In this document: positions 4,823 to 61,943 of the stretch, piece after piece | Numbering within the stretch: the first letter of the stretch is position 1 | Layout of the letters: each line of letters starts with the position of its first letter | Source: Octopus vulgaris | Lineage: Eukaryota | Length of the DNA: 64,000 nucleotides | Direction: 5' to 3' | NCBI GenBank assembly: GCA_951406725.2 | Contig: OX597826.1 | Location: forward strand, 79,174,001-79,238,000 | Program-made: the position numbers and the translations under genes | Notes under the pieces: model-generated | What the model was told of the DNA's origin: nothing | The model's input: the letters and a program-made list of their open reading frames with translations, nothing else | Database searches by the model: none

Positions 4823-4842
4823 TAATTGTTATCATTATTATT

Positions 4843-14219: not shown

Positions 14220-15938
14220 CTATGTTGATGGTGCTGCTGCCTGTGTCATCCTGAGATTTAAAATATCTGTAATATTTATCATCTGACGTTTCACCTCTTG
14301 TCTGTCTGTCTGTCGCCGTTTCCAAAGACCCCAGTTCATTGTCCCAACGATCAACAATTGAAAGAGAACAAATTGAGGACGACATGCATTTGTTGAACCA
14401 AATCTCAGATATTTCAAGTCGACTGAACTGTTCTAAACAGGTAAGGCTACACCTTTTTTATTCATTTATTTATTTCTTGTACCCCTGCTGTCTCTCCTTG
14501 TTATATTATTTCATAAGGCGGTGAGCTGGCAGAAACGTCAGCATGCCGGGCGAAATGTGTAGCCGTATTTCGTCTGCCGTTATGTTCTGAGTTCAAATTT
14601 CACCGAGGTCGACTTTGCCTTTCATCCTTTCGGGGTCGATTAAATCAAGTACCAGTTACGCACTGGGGTCAATGTAATCGACTTAATCTGTGTGTCTGTC
14701 CTTTGTTTGTCCCCTCTGTGTTTAGCCCCTTGTGGGTAGTAAAGAAATAAGTATTTCGTCTGTCTGTTATGTCATGAGTTCAAATTCCCAGAGGTGGACT
14801 TTGCTTTTCATCCTTTCGGGGTCGATAAATCAAGTACCAGTTACGCACTGGGGTCGATGTAATTGACTTAATCCATGTGCCTGTCCTTGTTTATCCCCTC
14901 TGTGTTTAGCCCCATGTGGGTAGTAAAGAAATATATATTATTTCGTCTACCTGTCTGTAACAGGTGTAATAAGATCTTTCTAGAAAGTAGCACTGATTTC
15001 TGATTGAACCATTTCACTCAATTTGCACCTCAGTTTTTGTTTTGTTTTTTCATCTCTGACTAAAAAGGGTTGATTAACCTCACATGCTCTGTCCTCTCCA
15101 TGTTTTTTGGATGTGGCAAAAGCCATACAAAAGACCCAGTCTTCAACAATAAGGCAATAATCTATTTTGAACGAAAATTCTATTATGACCCATTTTTACA
15201 TCTTTGTTCTTGATCCACTTCTCATAATCTCACACTCTGTGGATCCTTCCAGCCATTGCTTTCGCTGACTCCTGTCATCTTCTCACCACAGAGAGGACAG
15301 CAATTTTTTTGGTTATGTCCAGTTATCAAAATTGGTACTCTTGAGCCAGATTGAATAAAAGCAACACCGTAGTCATAAGCAAGGTTAGAATTTGCAAGCT
15401 TTAAACTCATAAAGTAGCTGACTGACCTCCTTAAGTTCACAGCCCTAACGTTGCTTATGGAAATGCTTATGAAAGTTCAGCTATTTCATCAATGAATGGT
15501 CCATATTATTGGGACAGTAAAAGACCCACAAGGAAACTACAGTTGTCATTCTGGTGAGAAAGTTCCTATGTAAGCGTTTGGTAAAGAGCAAATGCTGCTA
15601 CCTTAAACTTATCAAAGCAAAACACTGGTTCTCAACCCCTTTTTTTCTTTTTACCTGTGGATCCCTTTGGTTCCTGTTCTACTCTGCTGGACCCCTAGAG
15701 TCATTTGATCTTTTAAAAAATTCCATTATATTTTTATTATCAAGTGTTATTGGAAATTGTATAAAAAAATATTTTAAATGCAGGCGTGGCTGTGTGGTAA
15801 GAAGCTTGCTTCCTAACCACATGGTTCTGGGTTCAGTCCCACTGCGTGGCACCTTGGTAAAGTGCCTTCTTCTATAGCCTTATGCTGACCAAAGCCTTGT
15901 GAGTGGATTTGGTAGATGGAAACTGAAAGAAGCCCATC

Positions 15939-15971
<33 letters not shown>

Positions 15972-30900: not shown

Positions 30901-31158
30901 TCCGGAAAAAATGGACTAATTATTCAAAAATAAAAAAAGGAACATGATTAGATAGCGCGAAAAACGGGCTTTAAAATTATGTATAAAGTCAAAGTAATTT
31001 AATGAAAATTAATTTGAAAATACATAATTTAAAACCAAAATTAAAAATTTCGCAAGAACTTTTTTGACAACCTAATACTAGAAAAAGCAATCAAAGTTCT
31101 CACAAGTAACGCATAATCATTTGAAGAAGAAAAGAGACACCACCACCAACCTCTGTTA

Positions 31159-31198
<40 letters not shown>

Positions 31199-34100
31199 AC
31201 TGTGTAACATGATTTTTGTCCCTGAGTAACAACTGTTATTTCCTGTTTGCTTACCCACTAGAAATTATGATAATTGAGTAATATTTCCTTCAAACTTTGC
31301 TTCTGTTATGATATTTACTCAAACCCCAAAGAATCTCTTTCAACACATGGCTATGATGCTCCCCGACTACTCCTGCTCCTGATCAGAGATGCACTTGTTA
31401 GCAACTACCATACATGCTAAAGCAGTTAAGGTCAAGCAACTGACAAGCAAATCTGTGGTGTTGAGCAGGATATTTGTTATAACGATATTTCTGCTTCAGC
31501 AACTCAGCGCTGAATCTGTCAGAAATGTAATGGGGAAAAGGTCAGTTTCAAAACATTCATGTCCAGGTCACAAAAGCAAAGTTTGAAGGGAATGGTAGTC
31601 ATTTCCCTTGATGTCTAGACAGAAGCAAATAAGAAATAACACTGACAAAGACAAAAAAATAATAATAATTTTGTTACACATTGTTATTATTGATGTCCAT
31701 TCTTGCAAAGAGCTGACAGAGTTTATCGTGGCAGACTGTTTGAAGCCAGGTGCCCTTCCTGTCACCAATCCTCACCTGTTTCCAGGCAACTTAATATTTC
31801 CTCACACCCAGACATGTTCTCATAGAATATTGGAACCAAATGGCACTGCTTGTTTGCTCAGCGACTCTCACCTGTAATTATCATGTAATGTCAAGACAAA
31901 AATATGCACCACTATACACCGACTCACATATATGTCAGGCTTCATTCAGTTTCCATCTACCAAATCCATGAAACAACCAGTAATATACTAATATCGATTC
32001 AGTTGGCATGACAACTCTGAGAAATTTGTGTTTCAGTTTTTGTTGTCTTTCCAACTGGAAACGGTGTTTCCTAGGGCTAAATAACAGTAGCATTCTTCCC
32101 TTTCATGGGACTCTCACGTTAAGTTGACAACATACTATCACTTTAATTTTTTTTCCATTATCTTGGAATTATGTCTTCTAAGAAATTTGTGTATTTGTGT
32201 GATTTTCATTTCTGCTTTTTCTCTTCCAGCATCAGTTCAATGTGAACCCTGACCCGTCACGCTGTGTCCAGTGTATTGTCTCCTCAGGCCAAGGAGTGTG
32301 GGTTGCCCCTCAACAAAGTGCCAAAGTAAACCTCTACCATGCAACCACCTATGAGTTTCTTCATGAAATCAATGTCACTGCTGCTGTCACACACAAACTA
32401 CAACGTAAGTCGTTCATCTTTTCTGCTCCTTACAAATTTTGCTGACAGAGTTTGCTCCAGCTGGTCGTGGTCATTGTTTGTTGTTGTTGCTGTTGGGTGG
32501 CTAATTAAGTGACCCCCCGGTTAGGTTTCAGAAGTTCAAGGCCCAAAACAGCCTGCGATTACGGCCTTGGGGTGATTCAACAAGAAAGATTCCGATCAGT
32601 AGCTCAATCAACTAGAAATAGCAGTCAAATATTCAATCCAGTGACACTCTGCTGTCTTCAAGAAGGCATAAAATACACATTGGGAACTGTAGTCCTAGAT
32701 ACATGAGAAGAACCCCTTTTGGTCATTAATGACCATGGGATTGTACCTAGAAAGTTCCCCTCTAAGGCACAAGTCCGGGCAAGTTTGTTTTTATGGAAGA
32801 TCAGAAGTCGCCCATGCATACCAGCCTCCCGTCTCCACACCACAGATGTTATCCAAGGGAAAGGTAAAGGGGCCGATACAGCTTGGCACCTGTGACGTTG
32901 CAACTCATTTCTACAGCTGAGTGAATTGGAAATAAAGTGTCTTACTCAAGAACACAACACACAGCCCGGTCCGGGAATCGAACTCACAACCTCACGATCA
33001 TAAGCTTGACACTCTAACCACTGAACCATGCACCTAAACACACATTTTGTTTAAATGAAAGATCGGATGATCAATGCTAAAATGATTTTGATTATCATCA
33101 ATCTGCTTGATCAAGGTTGAACTGGAGAGCTGAACAGCAGCAGCAGCCCCAACAATGATGTTGATGACATCATCATCATCAATGTTGTTTGATAATCGTA
33201 TGAAACTCGTCCCATTAAATAAGTCCATGGGCTCTGGAACGAGGGAAATTTTAAAATATTGAGCAACATTCTTGTTTAAAGAATGTTTGATGAAATCCTT
33301 AAGAAATTGTTTGTGGTTCTTTGCCATGTTTGGAGAAGGTGCACAATTGCTGGCGAGGCAACTTTCCGATGCCTGGTCGAGTAAGAGGGTTAGGGTTAGG
33401 GTGGTGAGCATGCTTGGAAGCCATGGGCACAAGCCTTAGTGAAGCCAACTTGGTGGTAGTCATGTTTGGAGAAGGAAATTGTAAGGTGGGTGGGGGGGAG
33501 AGATTTATTTAGTTGATGATGTAGGATATTCCTAAGTTGTTTATTGTTGGTATAAATATTGATTTTTAATTTTGGCACCAATTTCTGGGGGTGGGGTTAA
33601 GTCGATTACATTGACCCCAGTACTCAACTGGTACTTATTCTATTGATACTGAAATGATGAAAGGTAAGATGGACCTTGGTAGAATTTGAACTCAGGATGT
33701 ACAGAAAGCCAAAATGTCTGCTGAGCATTTTACCTGGTGTGCTAACGATTCTGCCAGTTTGTTACCTCATTTGTTTGTGTCAATATTGATAGTATTTAAT
33801 AGGTCCAGAGCCAGTGCCATCTGAATGGCACCCTTGCCGGTGGCACATAAAAAGCACCGTTTGAGTGTTGGGCCTCATGCAGACAATGAGAACCCGTTAT
33901 CTCTTCAGTTTTATTGCAATGTTAATCGAGGCTATACCAGTAAGACTGATAAGTCAATGAGATCACCATTGCTGTGGCCATGCTACAGCTATACAATCAG
34001 TGTAAAATAACACTCCAGATTGTGTTCCATTTGTGTCCTGTCTGTATTAAATGTTTGCTTTCTTTCTTCCTCTTCTTCTTCAGTGGCTGATGACATCATC

Positions 34101-36505
34101 AGGCAACACAAGACGGCCTGCCTGCGAGTGACGGCTTTGTTAATCTGCAAAGACTTGCTGTGGGTTGGAACCAGTGCTGGAGTGATTCTCACCATTCCTG
34201 TACCGAAAATAACCTCCACCACAACACACAGTAACATCAATTGTCCAGCAGTTACAGGTGAAACTTCTTTATATCCTTGCTCTCCTCTTTTAGCCTTTTA
34301 TGCTCTCCTTCTCTCCATATTTTACCCTCTCTTCATTTCTGTATTAGTAAAGTGTTTGTCCCTTTATGTGTGTGGCGTAATGTGCAAAGTTCTTCCAACT
34401 AGTGACAGACCAGACAACTGGAGGCAGGTGAGGAACCTGGATTTTTACTTGAAGAGTGATAAATATTATTTCTTTTACTTTTTTACTTCAGTCATTTGAC
34501 TTTGGCCATGCTGGAGCACTGCCTTTGGTCAAACAAATCGACCCCAAGGCTTTTTTGTAAGCCTAGTACTTATTCTGTCGGTCTCTTTTGCCAAACTGCT
34601 AAAATTATGGAGACATAAACACACCAACATCAGTTGTCAAGTGATGGTGGGGGGGACAAACACAGATAGTCACACACACAGGCTAACAGATATACACCCA
34701 CACAGGATTGGAGCCTGGTGCAACCTTCTGGCTTGCCAGCCCTCAGTCAAACCGTCCAACCCATACCAGCATGGAAAGCGGACGTTAACATGCACACACA
34801 CACACACACACACATATATGACGGGCTTCTTTCAGTTTCTGCCTACCAAAACGCTTTGGTTGGTCCAAGGCTATAGTAGAAGACATTTGCTCATGGTGCC
34901 ATGCAATGGGACTGAACCCAGAACCATGTGGTTGGGAAGCAAGCTTCTTACCACACAGCCGCTCCTGCACCTGTATTTACCTGTTGCTATAATTTTGTAA
35001 GAACCCCCCCCCCCACAACTCAGTTTGGAATCAGTGATAGAAATTTGCAGAAACTAATTACTACTACTACCTCTACTACTACTATATGCACAAGGCCTAA
35101 AATCTTGAGGGAGGGGGGCTTATTGATTACACCCCCCCCCCCGTGCTCAACTGGTTCTTATACTATCAACCCTGAAAGGATGAAAGTCAAAGCTGACCTT
35201 GCCAGGATCTGAACTCAGCTGGAAGAGACGGCACTGAGCATTCTGTCCAGTGTGCTAACAATTCAGCCAGCTCACCACCTTGATTAGAATAATAATAATA
35301 ATAATGATAATGATTTCAAATTTTGGCACAAGGCCAGCATTTGGTGGGAGTGGGGTAAGTTGATTACATTGACCCACCCCCATCTCTCTCCACACACACA
35401 CACGGGGATCAACTGGTACTTATTTTATCAACTCCAAAAGGATGAGAGGTAAAATCGACCTCAGCAGAATTTGATCTCAGAATATAAGAATGGAAGAAAT
35501 GCTGCCAAGCCTTTTGCCTGGCATGCTAATGACTCTGCCAGTTCACTGCCACCTTAATTTAAGAAAATGAAAATTATAATTTCTTATTAACATAATAATA
35601 ATACAGTTCTATATTTAAGAGATGAGGAATTATGTACATTATTTACATTTGATGGATATTTGTCCTCATCTTTTTGGCTGATATATCCTCCAGCCTTCAT
35701 CAGGTGTCTTGGGGAAATTTCGAACCTGGGTTCTCATTCCTAAGGTATTTTTCAATGTTATTATTATTCATATGGTGTAGTGGTTAAGAGCACTGACTAC
35801 TAACCCCAAGATTCCGAGTTCAATTCCAGGCAGTGACCTGAATAATATTATTAATAATAATAATAATAATAATAATAACAACACAGGAAAATACCTTAGG
35901 AATGAGAACCCAGGTTTGAAATTTCGCCAAGACACCTGATGAAGGCTGGATGGTATATCAGTCGAAATGTGTTAAGAAACAAGATGTAAATGATGTAATA
36001 TAATAATGATTTTAATTATAATAATAATAATAATAATATCTATGTTTTGTTATTTTCCTTGGTTCTAGGTTTAGTTTATGGTCACACTGGACATGTACGA
36101 TTCTTGACAAGTGTGGAATTACCCAACAGCTCTGGACAAAAAACTGAATCTGTGACATCTTGCACTAGCTTTGGTTCCAGTAATAACCAACAACAACAAC
36201 AGCAGCAGAGTTACACCTCCAATACTACTATTACACCTACTACGAATACCACTACCACAGCCACGGTCACGAGCAGCTCAATGAGTGAGACGCCAGAAGA
36301 AGAACCCACATCGCCTGTTGTTGAGGGTAACTTATCCTTGCAGGAGATTCAGCGACGGTCATCCATGGCCACCACCGCAACGATGGCCACTCGCATGCTG
36401 GTGATTAGCGGTGGTGATGGCTACGAAGACTTCCGCAACAACGTTGCTAACGAAGCTGCTGGTCGTGACGACAGCACCAACCATCTCCTGCTCTGGCAGG
36501 TCTGA
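6422..36505 (+). CDS. ARHGEF17: Rho guanine nucleotide exchange factor 17-like gene, 5'-partial; 17 exons: 6422-6589, 7948-7998, 9718-9821, 10965-11053, 14328-14440, 17946-18061, 18432-18523, 20121-20194, 21765-21967, 23806-24020, 25105-25231, 26748-26834, 28062-28129, 29545-29693, 32230-32404, 34084-34257, 36069-36505
   Basis: Exons joined by hand at AG/GT sites give 2442 nt (813 aa + TGA) with consistent phases. Motifs TPKDHPD, KTRAGMQFSCAA, EVWVCNSDGYVG, MWLGTEDG, VFVSLANG, IIRQHKTACLRVTALL, GHTGHVRFLT and GDGYEDFR..GRDDSTNHLLLWQV match ARHGEF17 as I recall it. Earlier exons lie upstream of the window. Confidence 0.95.
7948..7998 (+). CDS. ARHGEF17: ARHGEF17-like exon (LAAPDRTYLRHDMVQIM, start of PH domain)
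   Basis: tttgtag acceptor, gtaagt donor, 51 nt, phase 0/0. Confidence 0.88.
9021..9402 (+). mobile_element. tRNA-derived CORE-like SINE, family A
   Basis: A/B boxes, GGCACCTTGGGCAA CORE-like block, internal (TA/TG)n, tail ATGACTGAAACAAATAAAAGA. Confidence 0.85.
9718..9821 (+). CDS. ARHGEF17: ARHGEF17-like exon (SKKDQCCIWMFSDLIIISSTKRKNG...)
   Basis: ttgcag acceptor, gtaagt donor, phase 0/2; FSDLII PH-domain motif. Confidence 0.9.
10271..10470 (-). mobile_element. RTE-type 3' UTR fragment (family C) with (GAT)n tail
   Basis: Reverse complement of the sequence ending the RTE at about 49800-49930. Confidence 0.7.
10965..11053 (+). CDS. ARHGEF17: ARHGEF17-like exon (QSPTGQDFAENIKHKICLRVGLDDIEVLK)
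   Basis: ttttgcag acceptor, gtgagg donor, phase 2/1. Confidence 0.85.
11244..11668. mobile_element. Inverted-repeat element carrying a hammerhead motif (Penelope-like terminal repeat derivative)
   Basis: IR pairs about 11244-11283/11456-11491 and 11420-11458/11625-11665; the block 11507-11601 recurs at 32052-32145. Confidence 0.55.
11304..11344 (-). ncRNA. Minimal type I hammerhead ribozyme motif
   Basis: Minus strand CCAGA-CUGAUGA-UGAG caauga CUCU-GAAAC-UA-GUC-UCUGG: stem I, intact core, stem II, palindromic ACUAGU stem III, GUC cleavage triplet. Confidence 0.72.
13040..13225 (-). mobile_element. tRNA-derived SINE, family D (degenerate)
   Basis: Minus-strand head GGCATGTGGCCAAGTGGTTAGGG...GGGTTCAATTCC; similar to 25345-25622. 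Confidence 0.65.
14028..14220. repeat. (CAT)/(CAC) trinucleotide microsatellite
   Basis: Direct inspection. Confidence 0.95.
14328..14440 (+). CDS. ARHGEF17: ARHGEF17-like exon (DPSSLSQRSTIEREQIEDDMHLLNQISDISSRLNCSKQ)
   Basis: tttccaaag acceptor (the nearby cag at 14332-14334 is out of phase), gtaagg donor, phase 1/0. Confidence 0.82.
14516..14935 (+). mobile_element. SINE family B, head-to-tail dimer
   Basis: Full unit 14516-14750, then a 5'-truncated unit restarting at GTATTTCGTCTG. Confidence 0.85.
15779..16200 (+). mobile_element. SINE family A, full length
   Basis: Near-identical to 9021-9402 and 51148-51548. Confidence 0.88.
17010..17490 (+). mobile_element. SINE family B tandem multimer
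   Basis: Three successive family B units or partial units. Confidence 0.82.
17946..18061 (+). CDS. ARHGEF17: ARHGEF17-like exon (NLDETIKEIASNLTKQLSD...KLELQITT)
   Basis: ctttcag acceptor, gtaagt donor, phase 0/2. Confidence 0.9.
18432..18523 (+). CDS. ARHGEF17: ARHGEF17-like exon (EKVFNLIVVFLTPEKRLSWETVFLDAKHKL)
   Basis: ccacag acceptor, gtaagt donor, phase 2/1. Confidence 0.9.
20121..20194 (+). CDS. ARHGEF17: ARHGEF17-like exon (LLSDKRAPEFLLPLQITKTRAGMQ)
   Basis: ctgcag acceptor, gtgagt donor, phase 1/0. Confidence 0.93.
20426..20699. mobile_element. hAT/Charlie-type MITE
   Basis: Ends TAGTTGTTTTC.../...GTTGAGAACCTCTG; exact 8-bp TSD GTCTAGTC at 20418-20425 and 20700-20707; related fragment at about 15623-15778. 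Confidence 0.8.
20775..21215. repeat. Degenerate (GAT)n low-complexity tract
   Basis: Direct inspection. Confidence 0.85.
21765..21967 (+). CDS. ARHGEF17: ARHGEF17-like exon (FSCAA...EVWVCNSDGYVGHMCLLSLQPEP...ARILCICAVP)
   Basis: ttgcag acceptor, gtaagt donor, phase 0/2; strongly conserved motif. Confidence 0.95.
22830..23385 (+). mobile_element. Degraded RTE LINE 3' coding fragment
   Basis: VKGRLYDVCV*SVILHG and KTWEELVK..TKDRD motifs, homologous to about 49100-49550. Confidence 0.75.
23806..24020 (+). CDS. ARHGEF17: ARHGEF17-like exon (Ser/acid-rich insert SSMKNRRN...ESESSDDD...LCVE)
   Basis: accag acceptor (in-frame alternatives at 23809 and 23812), gtaagt donor, phase 2/1 fits both neighbours. 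Confidence 0.82.
24265..24503 (-). mobile_element. SINE family B, full length
   Basis: Reverse complement of 14516-14750. Confidence 0.88.
25105..25231 (+). CDS. ARHGEF17: ARHGEF17-like exon (...ALKSTMWLGTEDG)
   Basis: tttccaaag acceptor, gtaaag donor, phase 1/2; WLGTEDG motif. Confidence 0.88.
25345..25622 (-). mobile_element. SINE family D
   Basis: tRNA-like head on the minus strand, followed by a TTCTTGAGTAGAACACTTCATTTCAC block. Confidence 0.7.
26748..26834 (+). CDS. ARHGEF17: ARHGEF17-like exon (CIHIFLCTDNIKTTKNKLKIQHVAPVYCI)
   Basis: tctacag acceptor, gtaagt donor, phase 2/2. Confidence 0.92.
27175..27640 (-). mobile_element. RTE 3' UTR (family C) with internal imperfect tandem repeats of about 60 nt
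   Basis: (CAT)n start, TTCCATGCTGGCATGGGTTGG, repeated GCCAGT..CTGGCAACGA.C.CGCTCGAATG units. Confidence 0.78.
28062..28129 (+). CDS. ARHGEF17: ARHGEF17-like exon (YLDNKVFVSLANGDLIVYRRDI)
   Basis: tttccag acceptor, gtaagt donor, phase 2/1. Confidence 0.94.
28605..29203. mobile_element. Family C copy (minus) fused to a plus-strand family C tail, forming a foldback
   Basis: (CAT)n..TTTCCATGCTAGCATGGGTTGG at the left end; CCAACCCATGCCAGCATGGAAA..(GAT)n at the right end. Confidence 0.75.
29545..29693 (+). CDS. ARHGEF17: ARHGEF17-like exon (DGQWDTEHP...AVAGKLWCGSQNSICIVNPLTLKIE)
   Basis: tttccag acceptor, gtgagt donor, phase 1/0. Confidence 0.93.
29831..31075 (-). mobile_element. Near full-length Hsmar1-like (cecropia subfamily) mariner with a frameshifted transposase
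   Basis: TIRs TTAGGTTGTCAAGAAAGTTATTGCG / CGCAAGAACTTTTTTGACAACCTAA with TA on both sides; fragments MDKKQIRTIFLFQFKLGRK..WWFKKF..WVPHEL and LLHDNAQPH..ELGYETLPH. Confidence 0.93.
32230..32404 (+). CDS. ARHGEF17: ARHGEF17-like exon (HQFNV...SGQGVWV...LYHATTYEFLHEINVTAAVTHKLQ)
   Basis: cttccag acceptor, gtaagt donor, phase 0/1. Confidence 0.93.
32700..33035 (-). mobile_element. tRNA-derived SINE (family D-related, different tail)
   Basis: Minus strand GCATGGTTCAGTGGTTAGAG..GAGTTCGATTCCCGG A/B boxes and a TGTGTTCTTGAGTAAGACACTTTA block. Confidence 0.8.
33565..33770 (-). mobile_element. SINE family B
   Basis: Reverse complement of family B. Confidence 0.72.
34084..34257 (+). CDS. ARHGEF17: ARHGEF17-like exon (ADDIIRQHKTACLRVTALLICKDLLWVGTSAGVILT...)
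   Basis: cttcag acceptor, gtgaaa donor, phase 1/1. Confidence 0.94.
34470..34975 (-). mobile_element. SINE family A with a nested family C fragment (about 34700-34790)
   Basis: Reverse complement of family A, interrupted inside its microsatellite. Confidence 0.8.
35090..35555 (-). mobile_element. Two adjacent SINE family B copies
   Basis: Two reverse-complement family B units separated by (AAT)n. Confidence 0.72.
35602..36000. mobile_element. Palindromic tRNA-head/hammerhead element, copy 1
   Basis: Left arm 35602-35770 inverted relative to right arm 35839-36000; central A box TGGTGTAGTGG and B box GAGTTCAATTCC; the arms carry GACAC-CTGATGA-AGGCTG..CAG(C/T)C-(G)AAA. Confidence 0.78.
35931..35973 (+). 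ncRNA. Hammerhead-like motif (core intact, stem III/cleavage site degenerate)
   Basis: GACAC CTGATGA A GGCTG gatggtatat CAGTC GAAA T GTGTT. Confidence 0.55.
36069..36505 (+). CDS. ARHGEF17: ARHGEF17-like terminal coding exon (GLVYGHTGHVRFLT...GRDDSTNHLLLWQV*)
   Basis: ttctag acceptor, phase 1, TGA at 36503-36505; diagnostic C-terminus. Confidence 0.96.
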
Positions 36506-44450: not shown

Positions 44451-44734
44451 TGAATCTCTGTCCCTTGGGGCAGGGACGTCTCATCGCTACTATCGATCAC
44501 TTTGTAGCCCCTACTGATCATCTCCCTTTTCTCTTTCTCCCTGTCCCTTATTAAAAGTCAGTAGCTCTGTAGATCCTCTGGAAGAACCTGCTTTGCACCC
44601 TCCCACCATCCTTTAACCCTTCGTTCCCTAGTATAAAGGTTAAATGGTACGGAATAGAGACAACTGCCTTTGTTTTGCAACCAAAGAACAAAGAGAGGAG
44701 AGTCCTTGTTAAAAAGTGATGATATGATAGGACA

Positions 44735-45734
44735 TACAGTTCTATAACTAAGAGATGAGGAATTATTTACATTTGATGGATATTTGTCCTCATGATTGAT
44801 TCGATTGATTCTAGTTTCAGCTCATGAGCTGTGGCCATGCTGGGGCACCGCCATCTTGTTTGTTATTAACACGTTTTGGGTGATATACCATCCAGCCTTC
44901 ATCACTACACCATATGCCCACAGGCATATGGCGTAGTGTTTAAGAGCATGGGCTACTAACCCAAGATTCCAAGTTCAATTCCAGGCAGTGACTTGAATAA
45001 TAATAATAATAAATGCCCTGATGCAGTACCAGGCAGTGGCTCTCATGGCTTCTGATCTTAACTGATTGGAAGTGTTATCATGTACATTGTTTTGTCTTGG
45101 TTTAAAAGATGGGCTACAGCAAATATTCTGCTCAATACCATAGATTTGCTTGTGAGTTGCTTCACCCTAACCAGTTGAGCATGTCCCCTTGTTGCTGACG
45201 ATATGTGCATCTCTGATCATGAGTAGAAGTAGTGGGGGAGCATCATAGCCATGTGTTGAGAGGAATTCTTTGGGGTTTGAATAATTCACCTTTGGAAACA
45301 TGGGTGGTTCATTCAACATCCTTAAACAATCCTTATTCAGGGACCTTTTGAGTGGGATGGGTTACTTGACCAGAAGAAAATTCTAACTGGGCCCCACCTG
45401 CAAGGTCATGCGCTGTTTATCTTGATATGAGATCACTATCTCGTGCACATATGGTTGTGATGCATGTGCTTGGTGTACCCTTATCAGACAGGTAGTCATG
45501 ATGGGTATACTTCGTACATTTTACCCCAGTGTCACTTTGATGACATGCACTGCTCTCTCACTCAATAATAATAATAATAATAACAACATCGAAAAATACC
45601 TTAGGAATGAGAACCCAGGTTTGAAATTTCCCCAAGACACCGAATGAAGGCTGGAGGATATATCAGCCATAATGTTGTGTTAACAACAACAAAGATGAGG
45701 ACAAATATCTGTCAAATGTAAATAATGTAAATAT
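44735..45734. mobile_element. Palindromic tRNA-head/hammerhead element, copy 2, with nested inserts (about 44793-44852 and 45010-45565)
   Basis: Same arms and tRNA-like head as copy 1; exact 10-bp direct repeat TGATAGGACA at 44725-44734 and 45735-45744. Confidence 0.78.
45010..45565. repeat. Unclassified interspersed repeat inserted in an (AAT)n tract
   Basis: Part of it (about 45120-45280) recurs in reverse at about 31320-31480. Confidence 0.65.
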
Positions 45735-46053
45735 TGATAGGACACAGTTTTATTGGAAGGGAATCACTTGTGTAAGTTGAGGCAGGAGCACACTATGCAG
45801 CCAAATGCAGATATATGGACAAGGACAATGGTCAACAAGGAGACAATATTGAAGAAGGAGTAAGACTTGTAGAGAAACTTCGTAAAGATAAAAGTGAAAG
45901 GATTGGACTTGGCATTGATGCTGATTGAAGGTCAATGGTGAGATGGAATTGCTGGTCAACTGAAAAATGACCGATCCTACTTGGTATGAAAAATAGTGGC
46001 ATAGAGAAATTAGCCAAAATTTGATTGATATTATCCGAAATTAAAAAGAACTA

Positions 46054-47440
46054 CAGTGGGGGGAAATAAATATTCGTACATGTCAAAATTCTTCATTTAT
46101 TTAATTTCTAATGAACATAAATGGGATATTCCAATACTATATTTGCAGACACATGCATAAACTAAGAATATGCAAAAGAAACTAATAAATTATAGTAACT
46201 AATGAATTTATATGCAATCATAAATATTTAGGGGTGAAAAAAGTATTCGTACTGTTAAAATATTTTTTTTTTACTAGAACTTTCTCGTTTGTTCCAAAAA
46301 TCTTATCAGTTGTCATTTTTAAGTGCCAAAACACTAGCTTCTTCATTCAACATTGAGACAACATAAAGTAGTATCGTAATAATGGCGAAAAGTAAAGAAC
46401 TCACAAATTCAGTGAAAAACTTAATTATTGAACAGTGGAAAGCAGGTAAAAGTTACAGGAAAATATCAGAGACCCTTTGTATTCCATTTTCTACCATATC
46501 TTCATTTATTCAAAGATATAAAGAATCGGGAACTGTTGTAAACAGAATAAGATCCGGTGCACCATGCAAGATTTCTCCTAGATCTTTAAGAAAAATGAAG
46601 TGAAGAATCGAAAAAAAAATGCAATGACCACCAGAAAGGAGTTGCAAGATTTGTTAGCTTCAGGGACTAGTGTTACACTACGAACAATCAGCAATGAACT
46701 TCATAGGAATGAACTGAAGTCACACTCTCCTAGAAAAACTCTGCTGTTGATTAAAGGCATAAAGATGCCCGTTTAAAATTTGTTTATGAACATAAAGATA
46801 AATCTGATACATTCTGGGAAAATGTTCTATGGACAGACGAGTCGAAAATTGAATTGTTTGGACGAAATTCGCGTAACCATGTTTGGAGGAAAAACACAAT
46901 TTCTACCGTAAAGTTTGGAGGTGGCAACATCATGGTGTGGGGGTGTTTCTCTGCAAATGGTACTGGCAATTTACATGTGATAGATGGTAGAATGAATGCA
47001 GAGATGTACCAAAATATTTTGAACAATAATTTATGGGACTTTGTAGAAAAGCTCCAGCTTTGTGAAGGGTGGGTTTTACAACAGGGTAACGACCCTAAGC
47101 ACACGGCAAAGTCTACCAAAAAATGGATTGTCGATCACAATATAAAATTATTACAATGGCCAAGCCAGTCACCTGACTTGAACCCCATTGAAAATTTGTG
47201 GCGTGTATTTGAAAATTAAAATTCATTCAAGAGCCCCAACGTGCATTGCAGATTTGAAGAAAATTTGTCAAGAAGAATGGGAAAAAGTTCCTAAAGAAAC
47301 ATGCGAGTCACTGATTATGAACTACAAGAAGAGATTGGTTGAAGTGGAACTGAATAATGGTTATGCTACGAAGTATTAAATCAGAATTATCAGTTATTTA
47401 TGTTCTGTACGAATACTTTTTTCACCCCTAAATATTTATA
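46054..47440 (+). mobile_element. Tc1-family (DD34E) transposon, IR/DR type, pseudogenised, right end truncated
   Basis: TA-CAGTGGGGGGAAATAAATATTCGTAC left end; inner repeat GGGGTGAAAAAAGTATTCGTAC near 46230 has an inverted partner at 47407-47436; WTDESKIELF, VKFGGGNIMVWGCF, QQGNDPKH, WPSQSPDLNPIENLW. Confidence 0.93.
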
Positions 47441-51147: not shown

Positions 51148-51548
51148 GGTGCAGGTGTGACTGTGGTAAGTAGCTTGCTAACCAACCACATGGTTCCAAG
51201 TTCAGTCCCACTGTGTGGCACCTTGGGCAAGTGTTTTCTACTATAGCCTCAGGCCGACCAAAGCCTTGTGAGTGGATTTGGTAGATGGAAACTGAAAGAA
51301 GCCCATCGTATATATGTATATGTATATATGTATGTGTGTGTATGTGTTTGTGTGTCTGTGTTTGTCCCCACAACATTGCTTGACAACTGATGCTGGTGTG
51401 TTTACGTTCCCGTAACTTAGCGGTTCGGCAAAAGAGAACCGATAGAATAAGTACTAGGCTTACAAAGAATAAGTCCTGGGGTTGATTTGCTTGACTTAAG
51501 GCAATGCTCCAGCATGGCTGCAGTCAAATGACTGAAACAAGTAAAAGA
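51148..51548 (+). mobile_element. SINE family A, full length
   Basis: Near-identical to the other family A copies. Confidence 0.88.
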
Positions 51549-52099
51549 CTAACAAGGTGGCAAGCTGGCAGAATCCTTAGAACATCGGACAAATGCTCAA
51601 CACCATTTCTTCCAGCTTCTTACATTCCAAGTTCAAATTCTGGCAAGGCTAACTTTGCCTTCCCATCCTGTTGGGGTCAACAAAATAAGTATCAGCTGAG
51701 TGCTTGTGTTGAGGTAATCAACTTCTCCACCCCTCAAAATTTGGTGGCCCTTGTGTCAAGTTGAGAAAGAATTATTAATCAAATGAGAAGCAGATTAGCA
51801 GAATCCTTATGGTTCTGCACAAAATGTCTTGCAGTGTTTGTTCTGGCCCTCTACACCCTTACTGAAACCAACCCTGCCCTTTGTCCAGCCAGGGTCAATG
51901 AAATAAAACACTTGTCTTGTACTAATGAGGATTTAAATGACTAAAATCAGAACATTTCTGGTCTTCTGTTTGCATTAGAAAATCAGAAAAGAACCATAGA
52001 ATTTCTTAATCACCATTTTGTTGCTCCCAAAAATTCTTCCAAATTGCAAAAAATAAATAAAAATTAAAAAATGAAAGAAATGTGAAAAATCAAACAAAT

Positions 52100-52469: not shown

Positions 52470-55400
52470 CTGAAAGTAAAGGGTGAATATAGTTTTGTGC
52501 GATGAGAGTAAAATATTTTAGGCTGCAAACTAATTTGTATGGAAGTGATCTATATCTATATATATATACTCTTTACTCTTTTACTTGTTTCAGTCATTTG
52601 ACTGTGGCCATGCTGGAGCACCGCCTTTAGTCGAGCAAATCGGCCCTGGGACTTATTCTTTGTAAGCCCAGTACTTATTCTATCGGTCTCTTTTGCCAAA
52701 CCGCTAAGTGACAGGGATGTAAACAAACCAGCATCGGTTGTCAAGCAATGCTAGGGGGACAAACACAGACACACAAACATATACACACACACTTATATAT
52801 ATATACATATATACGACAGGCTTCTTTCAGTTTCCGTCTACCAAATCCACTCACAAGGCATTGGTCGGCCCGGGGCTATAGCAGAAGACACTTGTCCAAG
52901 ATGCCACGCAGTGGGACTGAACCCAGAACTATGTGGTTGGTAAGCAAGCTACTTACCACACAGCCACTATGTGTATATATATATATATATATATAATAGA
53001 CAAAAATAAAGGGTTATACATAAGGGTGGGCTAAAATGTTCCTAGTTTGACTGTGAAGAAGTGATGCTAGAGCTGTAAAATCTTGGATGCATTAATTTCA
53101 ACTCTTCTTCTTAATAACTGAATTGTTTCTTTTCAGAAAAATAATATCTGACTGTTCAAAGAAGACTTCAAAAGTAAGTAGCAACCTCTGTTGAAAACAG
53201 ACAAAATTTGGTTATCATGGTGTTATCAAATACCTGCAGAAAAAGGGTTCAGCCCTCAAGAACATTCATGCTGACACGGTTGCTGCAGTAGGGGATGATG
53301 CTCCAACTTTATCAACTGTGCAAAAATGGGCAGCTGAATTTAGGAGAAGGAAGAGAGAGCTTTGAAGATGACCCGAGGTCTGAACGTCCTGAAATTGCTA
53401 CACCACATGCTGATAGATGACAGGCAATTAACTATAAATCAAATAACGAATGCTATTAGCATATCCCATGGGAGAGTTGAGAATATTCTGCACAATGAAC
53501 TTAGCATGACGAAGGTTTATGCTTGGTGGGTGCAATGTCTTCAAACACCTTATTAAAAGAGTACCAGGCTGATCACATCATGGGAAATCTGACATGGTTT
53601 GAGGCAGATCCAGCTGGCCTCAAAGTTTTCTAACCTAGGACGAGTGTTGGTTTCATTACTTTGAGCCAGGGGCAAAGAGACAATCCATGCAGTAGCAACA
53701 CTCCTCACCCGCTCTAAAGAAGATCAAAGTTGTTTGATCTGCAGGGAAGGTGATGGCCTCAGCTTTTTGGGATGCAGGAGGCTTTGTGTTTATTGACTAT
53801 CTTCAAAAGGGCCACATCATCAATGCCATCTTGCTGAGGCAGCTGGAAAAGTTTATCAAGACTAAATGCCCAGAAAAACTGACAAAAGGGGCCACACAGA
53901 GTGTACTGGGTGCTTTTTACATGGTACCAGCACTGCTGAGGTTGCCAAGTACCTGCAAAATAAGACTTCCTAACTGAGAAGAATAAGAAAGTATGATAGA
54001 GAGAGAGGAGGTGTTGTTGTCTTGCTGAAGAGGTGAATGCATGGCTTGCCCACCTGGAAAATGAGAAAGAGAAGAGATGTGAGGTCCAGGTACAACATGA
54101 ATATGAGAGAGGTGATTAGAGATACGGAATGAATTGGACACAGAGGATATCAGTTCAATGTCGGGGAAAGTGAAGAAAATAGGGTAACATAAAAGATTGA
54201 TGGAAGAGTGGGTGTCAGAGGATGAGTAGCAGGAGGAGGCTTGATGAAGCCTCAATCCTGCTGAGATGGGAAAGTCTTCTCAAGCACAGTATAATACCAT
54301 TCTTCTCAGTTCCCCGTAATCTCCTCTGAGGTCAGTCTTCACCATTTTGTCCCACATCCTCTTCAATCTACCTCTGCCACATGTTCCTTCAACATTTAGT
54401 CATCAGCATTTCTTTATACAGCTGCCCACATCCATTTGCATCATATAACCATTCCAGATCAGTCTTCGCTCCTGCACACCACACCTGATGCCTCTCGTAA
54501 GCAACTTTTATATACATTTCTCTGAAGTCTTCTTCGCATGGCCTCTGCATTTACAGCCCAAGTTTCACAGCCATGTAGCATTGCCATTTGTACACAGACA
54601 TCATACAACCTGCCTTTCATTCTGAGAAAGAGGCCTTTTGTTATCAATAGAAGTGAAAGTTCACTGAACTTCCTCCAGCCAATTTTCTACTTTCGGAACA
54701 TGCTATGTATGGGTGGGAGGTGGTGGTGCTGGAAAGTTCCTGGCTTTGGGCAAAAGAAGTATAGGATGATCAGTTAATTATGATTCTATTCAACATATTC
54801 CCCTCTCAGATTTACAAACTTCAGTTTTTCTAAGCCCTGTAAAAGAACTTGGAAGGTTTGGCCTCCAACCAGGCCTTTCACGATACCCTTAAAGCCAGGA
54901 ACTTTTCAGCACCCCCTTGTATGTGTGTGTGTGTGTGTTTGTCTCTCAACACTGTTTGACAACTGGTGTTGGTTTGCTTCTTGTGTTCCTATAACTTAGC
55001 AGTTCAGCAAAAGGGGTTGATGGAATAAGTACCAGATTTTAAAAAGTAAGTCCTGGGGTTGATTCATTTGACTAAATGTTTCAAGGCAGTGCCCCAGCAT
55101 GGCCACAGTCTAATGAACGAAACAAGTAAAAAGATAAATGTATCCAATAAATTGGTTGGTAAGACATCGTAATGGTTGAGTGAATTATTATTTACTCTGG
55201 GCCATAAAATAACGTAGGTGCTTTTTGACGTAAAACAAATATGAATACAAGAAAACGTAGTGTGTATACGGAACGAGGATTCTGAACCAGAAGTTGGCGA
55301 TCCATCATGAATTGCTTCAACAGTAGGGGCATTGTATGAAGCATTTGGTTTTAAATCGGTATCATCATTACCGGGAAAAGCTAAACGTGAAAGTACTCAA

Positions 55401-58400
55401 ATGGAAGACTTTGACGAAGCAGCTAAACAGCAACTAGTGACACTAACCAGTACCATATTGCAAAAAGTATGCTCTATCATTAGTCTGGATGATGCTGGAG
55501 GCCTTATAAAAGAGGTTGTTAAAAACGAAGGAGAAGGTGTCATTGATGAAGGCAAATTAGCAGAAAATATTGCAGATAGATACAACCTTAAACTTTGTAC
55601 TTTTGTACACACTGGGGTACAAGATAGTAAAGGCAGTATCGACGCTTATTTTGCCACAGCTATGAGGCATTGTAATATGGGTTCAGAGGTTTTAACTCCA
55701 GTTGAATTAGTTGATGCTTGAAATGCTAATGGCAGTGTAAGTAATACAGTGGCAGAATTGGTTGGTATTAATAGACCTGCTGTTGAACAGTTTGAACAGG
55801 AAAACTTGGTGATAATTGGAAAATTACAAAACATAAGTGATCATATGGAAGTACAGTTTGATTTGACAAGAAATTCCGCTTCAGTTTATATCCCATTCAT
55901 GAAGCGATCCAGCATAATAATGAGTGTTGTGGATTTGAAACCGGATGGGCAAGAACAAGAAAGCACGGTAATAAGTATGGTCGAAAGTATGTGGATCCAT
56001 TTAAACAAGAGATTATCAATATGTTTAATTTGGGTAATGAAAACGAAGCTATGAAACGAGGTCCAGGTAAAATGTTAGGGGAACTTAAACGTAAACATCC
56101 TGGGCGTTTGGATTTACCATCATCATCATCGTTTAGCCAGAAGGCTTCATCAGGCCCAGTCAAATCGGAAACAGAAATTCGAACTGTTATTTCATCCTTG
56201 ATAGCAAAGAAAAGAAAGGGACAATCAACATTGTATGATGCCAGCCGTGGAACCCATGAACCATTCAAGTCAACAGCGCTGGAAATATTTCAGGAAGATC
56301 CTAATATTACACCACGCAGGGCATGGGAATTGTTCCAACAAAGACATCCTCCACACAAGGATATATCCACATATCCAACTGACGCAAAGATAAAGAGCAA
56401 AATATCTTCTTTAAAGGTTATGTATAGGAAAACAAGTGAAATACCTTAGGGATTTAAAGAAAGCATTGTCATTTTTCAAAAAATTGACAATTTCGAGAAA
56501 AAGTATTTTCGAAAATAATATAAATATGCGACACAAAATATATAATATTGCAGCTATAATCACGATTTTACTGAGTTTTGGTAGTTTGGGTCTTTACAAA
56601 ACTGGGTCAAACTTCCAAACTCTGAGACGTTAGATTTGCGCTCATAAAAACTTAAACAAGTGGAAGAATTATCTCCCTTAGATTTATAAAAATTTTTTTC
56701 GTCTTTAAGATAAAGGAAAAGGGTGTGCCCTTATTCTAGTCTTTTTTTAGGGTGAAGGGGAGAGAAATAAATGGGTGAAACTAATAATTAACGCTCAGTT
56801 GGAATTATTAAATATTAGTGCTTACTCATGGTGGATGTATTGAGAGAATCAGCTGAGTAACGGACAAAATGCCTTGCAGTAGTTATGGTCCAACATCAAA
56901 TCCCATCAAATGTTGATTTTGCATTAATCACCATCATCATCATCGATTAACGTCTGCTTTCCATGCTGGCATGGGTTGGACGGTTTGACTGAAGTCTGGC
57001 AAGCCAGAAGGCTGTACCAGGCTCCAGTCTGATCTGGCAATGTTTCTACAGCTGGACGCCCTTCCTAACGCCAACCACTCCAAGAGTGTAGTGGGTGCTT
57101 TTTACGTGCCACTGGCACAGGAGCCAGTCAGGCGACACTGGCATTGGCCACGTTTGGATAGTGCTTTTTATGTGCCACTGGCACAGGAGCCAGTCAGCGG
57201 GCACTGGTCACAGCTACGATTTTGGTTTTACTTGACTCAACAGGTCTTAAGCATATCATATCGCCTGACGCATCAAGGGTACTATTAAATGGGCCGAACA
57301 TGTAAGACTGGCAACTTTAGTTGCCAGGTCTTCTCAATCACAGCATATCTCCAAAGGTCTCGGTCTCATGTCATTGCCTCTGTGAGGCCCAACGTTTGAA
57401 GGTCATGCTTCACTACCTCATCACATCTTCCTGGGTCTACTTCTTCCACAGGTTCCTTCCACAGTTAGAGACCCAAGGACCATCAATTCTATGTCCATGG
57501 TTCCTGTTGTTTTGTACATCTAAGTAATTTTCTTCAGGAAGAGGAGCATCGTCACCATTCAGCATCATCCCACAATTATATTTCCGTTGACCAGCAAATC
57601 TTGCCTCATTAATTACAATAGAGTTGTTGTCTGTTCTAGCCATCTTACCCTGTTGACGATGAGAAGCGATGGTTCCACACACCTCTCTGCACATAGACCA
57701 GGCATTTACCATACTGGAAGACTTTCTGGTTAGAGTCACTGCTTTATTCATGGGTATCTCCATTACAACAAAGAACACCAGAACACTAAGATCTTGCACA
57801 AACTCAAATTGCAGTGCAACTTGTTGTTGATGCCTGTATAATAAAAAAAAAAAAAATGGTAACCTTTCCGAACGCCAAGTTTGACACCCATTTTGAGGAT
57901 AGTGAAATCTAGGCCAGTATTCTCCACTTCTGTTAGATTTTCATTTTTCTTGCCTGACGCCTACCACATCAATGACAAGGGTTTGCTTCTTGTGATGTAT
58001 CCAGAAGATGGTTTTCTAGTAAAAATGCAACTACTGTTTCCTCTGTCAAAATTACACGTCTATAGAAATCCTTCAACAGCAATGTCATGGTTAAAATGAA
58101 CTCAGGTTAAGAAAAGGTAGACCGCACGCTAAAAGTAATTTCACAGCATAGACAGGATACTGCAATGGACTGCACACTAAAGTAGCACAAAATGCTTATT
58201 TTTGTATATTTCCATTTTATATTTGAAAAGTTTTCTTAGTTTTTGTTTTTTAATTGCAAAGTCTTTGATCAGATCCTCAAAATTAATCTATAATTAGTAG
58301 AGAGATAAGACAGCCTAATTATTATTTTAGCAAGTTTAAGAGGATTCTTTTGTGCCATAAACCAGTTATTGCACTGCACTCACTGCACTCACATTTAATT

Positions 58401-59422: not shown

Positions 59423-59457
<35 letters not shown>

Positions 59458-61943
59458 GAGTGGCTGTGTGGTAAGAAGGTTGCTTCCCAACCACATGGTT
59501 CTGGGTTTAGTCCCATTGCATAGCACCTTGGGCAAGTGACTTCTACTATAGCCTCGGGCCGACCAAAGCCTTGCGAGTGGATTTGGTAGACAGAAACTGA
59601 AAGAAGCCCATCTTATGTGTGTGTGTGTGCGCGCATGTATGTGTTTGTACCCCTACCATTGCTTGACAACCAATGTTGGTGTGCTTACGTCCCCGTAACT
59701 TAGCGGTTCAGCAAAAGAGAGCGATAGAATAAGTACTAGGCTTACATAGAATAGGTTCTGGGGCCGATTTGTTCGACTAAAGGTAGTGCTCCAGCATGGC
59801 CACAGTCAGATGACTGAAACAAGTAGAAGAATAAAAGAATACATACATACGTATATATACATGTATGTATATATATTCAAGGGCACTTAGCAGAGTGTAA
59901 TGGGAGTCTTTTACATGTCATCAGCAATATTCTAAAGTCAAGTTTCACTATTTCTTCCATGGTCTTTCTCTTCTATTTTTCTTTGAATCATTTGCCACTT
60001 CTTCACCCAACTTGCATCCTTCATACACATCACATGACCATACCATTGCAGTCTTCTCTCTTGCACACTGCAACTGATTTGTCTTGTGCCATTTTTTGTT
60101 CACATATGCTAACATAACACACACAGGGGTTCATGCTCACCTAATTTCTTTGCAACCTTTGTGCATATTTGCTGCCCTCAGTGTCCGTGTTTTGCTACCA
60201 CGAAAAATCTCATTATTCTTGTATACAAATCAAGGCCATTTCTTGCTGTGTTGGAATATTTCAAACTGTTCACAAACACTAGTTTTTGTCATGTAATGTT
60301 TGGACCTATCAACCTCAGTTCTTTGCTTTTTGTTTTAAAAAATGGTGAAGCCAAACTTACCATCCTATTGCTCCCATTTCTTTAGCCCTCTCGGAACCTC
60401 TTTTAGCTTCTTGGAGAAGTTCAGCAACAGCTAACCTGACAATTAAAACATACGAAAAGTTAGATACAGTGTGAGCATTCTGAGATTTGGTGCTAAATAA
60501 ATTAGAGATTTAAAAACCAAAACGACAAGAAATGGGATTCAAGATATAACATTGGTTGCAAAATATATAGAATTGATTGAAGAACGTTTGTTGTAATGCT
60601 GGGTTATTAATCATTTGGTATAAATTCAAGCCTTACAAACCTCCCAGACATGGTCCTCACACACGGGGACAGTTACCTCAGCATAAGGCTATGAGGTCGG
60701 CTATGTAAAACCTATATAAAGCTCTATATAATATAAACGTATATAAAGCTCTAAAAGACGTTTAATTCATTAAGGGCATAATTTGCAGAGATTATTTTAC
60801 AAAAGAAAATGGGCAATGATCATCAATAGAAATGGAAATTAGTCAAAAGATGTAGACATTCCGTCAATTACACTGTGCAGCAGGAAATGTTGGTATCTGT
60901 CATTAAAAGTTGTTAAGGAAGCTAACTGTTGGACAATACAGCGAGTGATTGTAAAGTAAAATTGGCACTTCAACAGCCAAGCACATTCGTGAGCATCTTT
61001 TAATGCCTTATTGTGAGATATCAATGGTAACAGCGACTGAGGAGGACTTTAGATAGTCACGCTACCTGATAGATACAACAGCGAAATGTTCTTTAAATTA
61101 CATTACTGTATCACAAAAAATGAATTCCACAATGTATTCCAAGGTACCGAATACTCAAAAAAGATTGGAAAGCTGTTAATCATAGGTATACTCGACCAGG
61201 GCTGAACTAGGGTTAAGGAACAACGATGTTAGTATCACCTCCATGACAAGAATCAGACGTTTAACACGCATTAATCTCTACAAAATAACCAAACATTGTT
61301 TTCTGCTCAAGCAGAGCACGACAGATTTGCTTTTAAAAGCTAGAACGTGTCAGCTGGGTTCTTCTAAAGCAACACAGTAACATAGTCAAGGTGAATGAAA
61401 AACGATTTTGTTTTTTATTACCATGTTAGGAAAACAACAAGTGGGAATTAAACCCATTGGATATGAAATGATGAAGTTTTTGTTTGTTTTACTTCTGTAG
61501 AATAGTTACACCATTGTTGTTACACAAGAAAATGGAGGAAATATAATATATATATGCGCCATAAAACCTCTTATTAGTTAGAAACTCTTCATTAAGTATT
61601 AACTTAGCCATAATTAAACTACAAAAGGAAGACAGTCACGCAATATTACTATAAACCAAGAAACCTTTAATAACGAAGGACAACCCAAAAGAACGAAACC
61701 CCAAAATGTAAAATATTCAGACAAGAAATGTCTAACAGGTACTCGATGCCTAAAATTTTTTCAAGTGATGGAAACTGAAATTCCGGACCCGAGGAAAATT
61801 TTCTAAATTCATCCCAGACGCAAATTTTGACATCTCAATCCAGGACATGTCGGTACTAGTCCCGGAAACTACGAACGACTGATAACGGCTTAATTACGGA
61901 TATTTCTAAAGTCCACTTACGCATCAAGATCCTCCTCCGCCAT
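52100..61943 (-). CDS. POLR1D: POLR1D isoform-2-like small basic protein, 3 exons: 61943-61921, 60435-60361, 52469-52100 (155 aa)
   Basis: Spliced product MAEEDLDA-LAVAELLQEAKRGSERAKEMGAIGW-RKCPIPQANKVFLNNTLLS... followed by an R/S/K/H-rich tail. This matches recalled human isoform 2 (KAIEELLKEAKRGKTRAETMGPMGWMKCPLASTNKRFLINT). gtaagt donors, cag acceptors, phases 2/2, 468 nt total. Confidence 0.88.
52567..52969 (-). mobile_element. SINE family A, full length
   Basis: Reverse complement of family A, little CpG decay. Confidence 0.88.
53021..53893 (+). mobile_element. Himar1/irritans-like mariner, 3'-truncated and degraded
   Basis: GVIKYLQKKG..TVQKWAAEFRR, SISHGRVENILHNEL.MTKVYAWWV, KVMASAFWDAGGFVFIDYLQKG. 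Confidence 0.85.
54240..54690 (-). mobile_element. RTE LINE 3' coding fragment
   Basis: ITKGLFLRMKGRLYDVCVQMAMLHGCETWAV matches the RTE at about 49100. Confidence 0.8.
54719..54921. mobile_element. mariner-derived MITE
   Basis: TIRs GGTGCTGGAAAGTTCCTGGCTTT / AAAGCCAGGAACTTTTCAGCACC about 200 bp apart. Confidence 0.8.
55240..56449 (+). pseudogene. Intronless, disrupted coding relic, probably a DNA-transposon transposase (Sola-like?)
   Basis: Three consecutive ORF pieces (55332-55721, 55749-56054, 55991-56449) broken by one in-frame stop and a frameshift; FVHTGVQDSKGSIDAYFA..LTPVELVDA motif; antisense within a host intron. Confidence 0.55.
56930..57470 (-). mobile_element. RTE LINE 3' end (ORF end, UTR and (GAT)n)
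   Basis: Reverse complement of about 49400-49930 (VEGTCG.SRPRK). Confidence 0.8.
57471..58468 (-). mobile_element. Merlin (IS1016/IS1595-like) transposon relic
   Basis: VNAWSMCREVC and IVINEARFAGQRKYNCG..DGPWV resemble Merlin DW.N.CREVC / IDES.F..RKYNRGR..WV; candidate end GGTTTCTTAAATTGGTGCC. Confidence 0.72.
59455..59840 (+). mobile_element. SINE family A, full length (older partial copy at about 59258-59425)
   Basis: Near-identical to the other family A copies. Confidence 0.87.
60361..60435 (-). CDS. POLR1D: POLR1D-iso2-like exon 2 (LAVAELLQEAKRGSERAKEMGAIG)
   Basis: attgtcag acceptor, gtaagt donor, 75 nt. Confidence 0.9.
61921..61943 (-). CDS. POLR1D: POLR1D-iso2-like exon 1 coding part (MAEEDLDA)
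   Basis: aacatcATGGCG start context, gtaagt donor. Confidence 0.82.

Follow-up and report, generated by a model that had tools for sequence, protein, structure and literature searches.

Our main reading of the DNA analysed here, a window of 64,000 nucleotides from Octopus vulgaris, is held with a probability of roughly 0.7. It is that the window contains an octopus repeat that is non-coding, present in high copy number, and about 260 nt long, with a tRNA-like head and a Penelope-type end, for which RNA polymerase III (Pol III) is the likely transcribing enzyme and a Penelope-like element (PLE) the likely source of the reverse transcriptase-endonuclease that inserts it in trans. The original prediction for this DNA had proposed mobilization by Penelope-like rather than LINE machinery, and this core inference holds: the inverted 5′ copy, the 10-bp target duplication, the one-sided tail, the minimal hammerhead motif, and a reading frame that stays open from the arm into the tail all point in that direction.

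The basic unit consists of the tRNA-like head, an (AAT)n tract, and an arm. Profile searches found just two copies of the family in the window, named copy A and copy B. Copy B is the clean example of the unit, preceded by an inverted arm, and it bears out the expectation that the layout of copy A recurs at 35602–36000. Its inverted arm with tail (35602..35768, minus strand) meets the head at the palindrome CATATG. The tRNA-like head of 72 nt (35769..35840, plus strand) is followed by the (AAT)n tract and a right arm without tail (35841..36001, plus strand). The translation of the adjoining last exon is 100% identical to Octopus vulgaris ARHGEF17, and copy B therefore sits in the last intron of that gene. 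Its predicted fold has an energy of −194 kcal/mol (z of −19.9), i.e., it forms a long near-perfect RNA hairpin, and as modelled this intronic hairpin is a candidate ADAR substrate. A low-complexity stretch of 8 nt is the sole candidate for a target duplication of copy B, and it is not convincing. The window list of open reading frames has none of at least 110 aa overlapping copy A or copy B, and no tandem array is present at either copy.

Copy A occupies 44735–45734. The sequence TGATAGGACA occurs exactly twice within the 64-kb window, at 44725 and 45735, as an exact 10-bp target-site duplication of copy A (44725..44734 and 45735..45744, both plus strand; the last base of the left one may be the element's). 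A 10-mer in common within ±5 nt was found for 122 of 200,000 random site pairs, and a complex 10-mer for 33 of 200,000. Family depth was taken from contigs of four public sequencing runs (of 24) aligned to 44560–45940; runs X2, X3, and X6 represent three organisms, and the fourth, X21 (organism D), contributed 2 records. In X2, X3, and X6, the summed contig depth rises from 5–57 in the left flank to 10^5–10^6 inside copy A, falls to 221–2,284 in the first bin past 45734, and reaches 5–46 in the following bin. Since the depth rises where the left duplication lies and falls at the right duplication, the edges of copy A match those of the family, and the predicted 10-bp duplication is confirmed by both the exact pair and the depth steps at the same ends. 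None of the 15 joints listed, out of 795 in the contigs of the sequencing runs, is an empty-site joint for copy A. In organism C, the right flank at 45777–45883 shows substitutions, a 5-nt loss, and small insertions; these differences indicate that an orthologous contig covers that flank.

The order of arm, head, (AAT)n, and arm proposed for copy A stands as far as the head, the AAT tract, and the inverted arms are concerned, but copy A also contains two nested insertions, and its arms are unequal. The left end is formed by an optional PLE-type tail of the left inverted arm (44735..44761, minus strand), found in neither right arm. It is followed by the inverted 5′-truncated arm itself (44762..44904, minus strand), with a GATGG loop variant, a 3-nt loss at the cleavage triplet, and its start at TGATGA. 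This arm is cut at TGATGA, and a TG microhomology connects it with 16 nt of the head start in inverted orientation (44903..44918, minus strand), which form the fold-back centre. The head (44923..44995) and the left part of the AAT tract (44996..45012) lie on the plus strand, as do the right part of the tract (45564..45582) and the right, pLTR-like arm (45583..45734). The latter contains an ATG at 45607, the hammerhead, and the 5′ strand (45693–45701) of a hairpin in whose loop the main 3′ end is located. The inverted arms of copies A and B match with BLAST E values of 1e-39 to 1e-49.

The two nested insertions, which are unrelated, measure 58 nt (inside the left arm) and 551 nt (inside the AAT tract). 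The shorter one (44794..44851, minus strand) is a piece of a different SINE; it is bounded by a CAT duplication of 3 nt and has six other matches in the window. The longer one (45013..45563) was considered as part of the unit and rejected: it is missing in copy B, its depth is 2.3–3.0 times that of the arm, contigs show mixed flanks before 44996, and it contains three TTTT runs (Pol III stops). It is an independent, more abundant AAT-associated repeat. It is non-coding, no recognisable reading frame having been found at 45013–45563, recurs at 31313–31483, and reaches a depth of 1.4–3 × 10^5 times the flank. Many contigs over it run to a variable point and restart at 45012–45013, a pattern suggestive of a retroelement on the minus strand whose 3′ end is fixed and which re-inserts into the microsatellite tail it carries. 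Dong-R4 elements target TAA, and a driver of the Dong-R4 type is our guess. A further dispersed SINE-like family, partly in tandem 185-nt units, lies at 4826–5028, 12277–12349, 14498–14933, 17013–17515, 24271–24437, 33597–33701, and 35120–35486. Short arrays of a 64–66-nt unit are present at 27340–27591, 28787–29118, and 57099–57164, and decayed frames at 29967–30919 (minus strand) and 46755–47219 (plus strand) resemble, by eye, mariner-type and Tc1-type transposases.

The heads of copies A and B are 89% alike. A-box-like sites begin at 44929 in copy A (44929–44939) and at 35773 in copy B, and a B-box-like site, GTTCAATTC, lies at 44973 (44973–44981) with tRNA spacing. The majority letters of the sequencing-run contigs, 44939G and 44977G, improve the A and B boxes, respectively. 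ARAGORN calls no tRNA in the head, five Rfam scans gave no tRNA match, and the predicted fold is not tRNA-like; such a lack of a tRNA call is common for old SINE heads. The head may resemble tRNA-Arg, and the octopus SINE OK is said to be Arg-derived. Matches of the head to phage records (6 and 2) are due to chance and include no tRNA. The sense strand of the unit is free of TTTT; the same holds for 4,097 of 20,000 random 260-nt windows, which makes this weak evidence. The head is also weakly similar to two other window repeats that were read as SINE heads (E of 0.006 and 0.03). These two belong to a second family of dispersed repeats, ~400 nt long and probably a SINE with a tRNA head, at 9026–9410, 15779–16198, 51148–51557, 52572–52968, and 59453–59839.

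Relative to the flanks, depth amounts to ~1–2 × 10^5 at the arm end, 4–9 × 10^4 at the hammerhead core, and 1–3 × 10^4 at the head, values that give an order of magnitude and not a copy number. The head is thus 2.6–4.2 times less deep than the arm, and this gap may reflect either truncation on top of two arms per head or a large number of headless arms. The second possibility leads to the main rival of our reading. It assumes ordinary 5′-truncated PLE ends with an AAT tract, to which a separate tRNA-(AAT)n SINE head was recurrently added by template switching at AAT, the products being chimeras with no master. The excess of arms over heads is what one would see in that case, one head is found with two different arm variants, and PLE ends can take up unrelated sequence, as the consulted part of PMC3846280 describes. 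However, both independent insertions have the head in an identical place and complete from its first bases, the inverted copy of copy A also includes head sequence, and the depth of the head is still ~10^4 times that of the flank. Head sequence is joined to an arm in the same orientation in three of the four window arms, and the fourth meets it at the common CATATG. Head capture seems unlikely to us; it stays the main rival because the linkage of head and arm is shown locally, in the two insertions of the window, and because arms outnumber heads 2.6–4.2 fold.

The two arm variants also bear on how the palindrome arises. The right arm of copy A and the left arm of copy B share the letters 45658A and 45691A, which are minority letters (84–93% and 90–96%, respectively, are other), and the left arm of copy B is deleted across the cleavage region. 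The left arm of copy A and the right arm of copy B, in turn, share the GATGG loop and the 3-nt loss that removes the cleavage triplet. A left arm with a tail that the right arm never had, and with different diagnostic letters, cannot come from the cDNA of the right arm. These sequence comparisons, in two insertions, suggest that two RNA templates may be used per insertion, one primed from each nick, with the products linked once a short fold-back has formed at the start of the head. Alternatively, read-through of a palindromic source or gene conversion between neighbouring copies may account for the pattern. The palindrome looks like something made anew with each insertion and not like a fixed unit.

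The hammerhead of copy A is a decayed motif of the minimal type I at 45636..45681 (plus strand), identified from majority letters and from the features given in PMC4209133. It comprises stem I (45636–40/45677–81), the core at 45641–47, a bulged A, stem II (45649–54/45663–68), GAAA at 45669–72, and a C-G pair, with the predicted cut after 45676. The hammerhead consensus that had been proposed is restored by the majority letters of three runs, but the window has no intact copy, with 0 matches to a minimal descriptor in its four arms, and five Rfam scans found no hammerhead. At the lesions of the copy A right arm, the majority letters in the three octopus runs are 45642T and 45643G (95–99% each), 45669G (70–77%), 45670A (99%), and 45673C (55–68%). 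They were taken from the best 40 of 93 rows and are unlinked between positions; the contigs across the GAAA part amount to about one third of the core depth, so the fractions describe the aligned subset. The majority letters contain CUGANGA, GAAA-N-N-U-H, G10.1-C11.1, the bulged base, the palindromic 15.2–16.2, and a helix I of 5 bp, within the 4–5 bp of minimal hammerheads.

Among the four decayed arms no compensatory helix changes are seen, two of the four have no cleavage triplet, and co-folding of the decayed copies gave no hammerhead dimer, which says little. In all five peptides from other copies, two of them gene models of O. sinensis and O. bimaculoides, the cleavage region is of full length. 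The count of CTGATGA-N-GAAA patterns was set aside as evidence: 6 were found vs. 2.3 expected, and 6 was reached in 4 of 100 shuffles, so it is not significant. Pattern scans yielded 1 chance match in phages, 0 in metagenomes, and 0 in GTDB. The miRNA matches in Rfam reflect simple repeats and, at copy B, the palindrome.

According to the consulted sections of PMC4209133 (Cervera and de la Pena 2014), the minimal hammerheads of metazoan PLEs share with the octopus motif a loop-less palindromic helix III, a 5-bp helix I, and a bulged base before G10.1-C11.1. The same sections describe paired minimal hammerheads on opposite strands, 100–700 bp apart, in S. mansoni. Helix II of the octopus motif has 5–6 bp vs. 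7–8 bp in metazoan PLEs, and the motif is attached to a head of the Pol III type.

A self-cleaving 3′ end, as originally envisaged, was not borne out: 58 nt, or 87 nt with the tail, are kept past the predicted cut. Self-cleavage is unlikely to make the 3′ end, since the priming region would be lost with a cut placed 58 nt upstream of the main end. Hammerhead cleavage is dispensable for insertion of Poseidon_Ac, as far as the consulted text of PMC11167929 goes, and minimal PLE hammerheads are described in the PMC4209133 sections as poor cleavers in vitro. These points weigh on a retrozyme-like reading, in which multimeric or dimerised transcripts are cleaved by the hammerhead and the intermediate is the resulting cut or circular RNA, a route put forward for SM-alpha and animal retrozymes. 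Its merits are that the hammerhead core is intact in the majority letters, that repeats combining Pol III and a hammerhead are known in schistosomes, and that PLEs have been proposed as drivers of retrozymes. The copies are, however, head-to-head and not tandem, neither end lies at the cut site (58–87 nt past it are kept), and the motif is of the minimal PLE type, a poor in vitro cleaver that has lost its triplet in two of the four arms, which leaves this reading very improbable. SM-alpha/Sj-alpha repeats and animal non-LTR retrozymes (PMC6765202, PMC7229834) resemble the octopus repeat in being non-coding and hammerhead-bearing, with a Pol III promoter in schistosomes and PLEs as proposed drivers, but they are tandem, carry canonical active ribozymes, form circles, and have their promoter at the 3′ end of the unit that is cut out. 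The octopus repeat is dispersed, inverted, and uncut, with the predicted promoter at its 5′ end and a minimal motif.

The left arms of copies A and B extend 26–29 nt (~27 nt) past the point at which both right arms stop, and in three runs the depth of this tail is about 1/6 of that of the arm end. Between 291 and 471 contigs per run pass 45733; they have about 12 letters in common and are then heterogeneous (agreement of 0.45). The main 3′ end falls within the loop of a 9-bp hairpin whose 3′ strand lies in the tail, and 8 of 200 shuffles fold equally well. The termini of copies A and B are unequal and their inner junctions variable, i.e., symmetrical fixed terminal inverted repeats are not found. 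It is thus hard to see in them a fold-back DNA transposon, a Mutator-like MITE that acquired a SINE head in its middle. Mutator-like elements typically make 9–10-bp duplications, and long inverted arms with a 10-bp duplication would suit them. Yet the tail is confined to the left, the inner ends vary, the depth climbs in the direction of the outer end, subfamily differences separate the arms, and an oriented hammerhead and a reading frame lie in the arm; we consider this origin most improbable.

An ordinary LINE-mobilised SINE whose copies were inverted and duplicated by twin priming of the L1 type or by DNA repair would explain the tRNA-like head with its A and B boxes, in a genome of which SINEs make up 11.6%, but it is just as doubtful: the AAT tract is internal and each 3′ end is formed by either the hairpin loop or the tail, with no LINE-type terminal simple-repeat tail; twin priming on one RNA inverts the 3′ end without duplicating it; and the one-sided tail and minimal hammerhead are marks of PLEs.

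In P0122, an ORF called on a different copy, arm and tail together stay open for 51 codons. The chance of such an open frame is 1.7% for a given frame and 4.8% for any of the three. Two gene models, P0125 of O. sinensis and P0126 of O. bimaculoides, open with the arm peptide and both depart from it at one residue, adjoining a GTAAAT donor-like site (45718 in the window). One runs into a cysteine-rich membrane protein and the other into a dystrobrevin fragment. Judged from their sequences, exonisation or alternative first exons are possible. P0121, tried as a further relative of the arm peptide, proved to be a chance match to a bacterial repeat protein. Peptide-based locus scans returned five loci (L002–L006), none with arm, head, or tail DNA.

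The features of the arm end are those of PLE insertions. In the consulted portions of PMC3846280 and PMC8557442, these are reported to have an inverted pLTR, a 9–10-bp duplication, an optional 31-bp tail on one inverted end, and junction palindromes. The former also places the ORF start within the pLTR plus tail and considers the pLTR sufficient for mobilization in trans. In vitro, Poseidon_Ac nicks and extends both strands with a preference for ATT, and it uses two internal start sites downstream of the hammerhead, one of them in a stem-loop, the tail being the stretch between them (PMC11167929, in the part consulted). Within the scope of these sources, EN+ PLEs (Penelope/Poseidon, Neptune) and the octopus repeat share a head-to-head inverted 5′-truncated copy, a duplication, a one-sided tail of ~30 nt, a junction palindrome, a hammerhead upstream of the ends, an open frame across end and tail, and AT-rich targets. 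In contrast to EN+ PLEs, the octopus repeat has no RT or GIY-YIG coding, a tRNA-like head replaces the ORF and the Pol II promoter, and its tail of 26–29 nt is slightly shorter.

No autonomous PLE with this end emerged from the protein searches, five arm motifs had 0 matches in the consulted part of the Craig 2021 supplement, and none of the 4 + 2 peptide relatives of the arm has an RT or GIY-YIG domain. Octopus is represented in that part of the supplement by Naiad and Hydra elements, which have (TA)n targets, and the hammerhead of Hydra-1_Obim differs from that of the octopus repeat. PLEs make up 6.83% of the genome according to PMC13282606, which does not describe the families in the sections consulted.

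Under the PLE-driven reading, the following course of events can be envisaged. Transcription would start at the head, a start suggested by the position of the inversion junction, which in both copies coincides with the beginning of the head. A PLE protein would bind the uncut arm, nick both strands of AT-rich DNA ~10 nt apart, and prime cDNA from both nicks. One cDNA would run from the hairpin loop, which gives the right end without tail, to the head start, and the other would begin at the tail end of a second RNA. The first cDNA may then fold back at the CATATG palindrome and anneal to the second at a microhomology, with a new head-to-head palindrome formed at each insertion. The hammerhead would be an inherited part of the recognised end and not the maker of the 3′ end. 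Later insertions and decay would have given copy A its present form. A more far-reaching version, to which we give somewhat less than an even chance, has a SINE-type master parasitising a PLE and not a LINE, with tens of thousands of Octopus copies, two RNAs per insertion as a record of the PLE dimer mechanism, hairpins planted in host introns, and some first exons provided for host genes.

Ohshima and Okada reportedly described the octopus SINEs OK, OR1, and OR2 in 1994, and an octopus SINE named "Twin" is said to come from Albertin in 2015. OR1 is a CORE-SINE. With tRNA-derived SINEs, as characterised in the consulted part of PMC3531059, the octopus repeat has in common that it is short (<700 bp), non-coding, very abundant, and equipped with a tRNA-like head with A-box-like and B-box-like sites. 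It differs from them in a 3′ end and an insertion pattern of the PLE type and not of the LINE type, and in the internal position of the simple repeat. The octopus repeat is inserted like a PLE end and built like a SINE, and it fails one defining feature of each, with no ORF and no LINE-type tail.

Other partial parallels exist. The short non-autonomous Penelope elements of Heliconius demonstrate that non-autonomous PLE derivatives occur, and the consulted sections of PMC6685494 mention no tRNA head. Pol III-type TRIMs, namely Cassandra, Helenus, and Ajax, have small-RNA promoters fused to the ends of non-LINE retroelements, and they parasitise LTR elements (PMC10886601, in the part consulted). 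Neither a PLE parasite with a tRNA head nor this octopus family was described in the literature searched, six arm motifs occurring in 0 papers. The family may nevertheless stand as a plain SINE (OK, Twin) or as Penelope in Repbase, Dfam, SINEBase, or the Zenodo library of PMC13282606.

If the octopus repeat is PLE-mobilised, it would be a genomic parasite of a kind not yet described. The consulted part of SINEBase (PMC3531059) makes dependence on LINEs part of the definition of SINEs, and a Pol III-headed PLE parasite would fill a third slot after LINE-dependent SINEs and the parasites of LTR elements. Self-priming on one template has been proposed as the source of the inverted PLE copy (PMC3846280, in the sections consulted). 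Thousands of short, subfamily-tagged copies would make its origin testable computationally, with one-template self-priming set against two RNAs on both strands. With a substrate of ~260 nt, the minimal cis signal that PLE-driven insertion requires would be defined as well. In octopus, dsRNA potential and hyper-editing are exceptionally high, and an abundant self-folding intronic repeat of this kind may be considered a candidate substrate.
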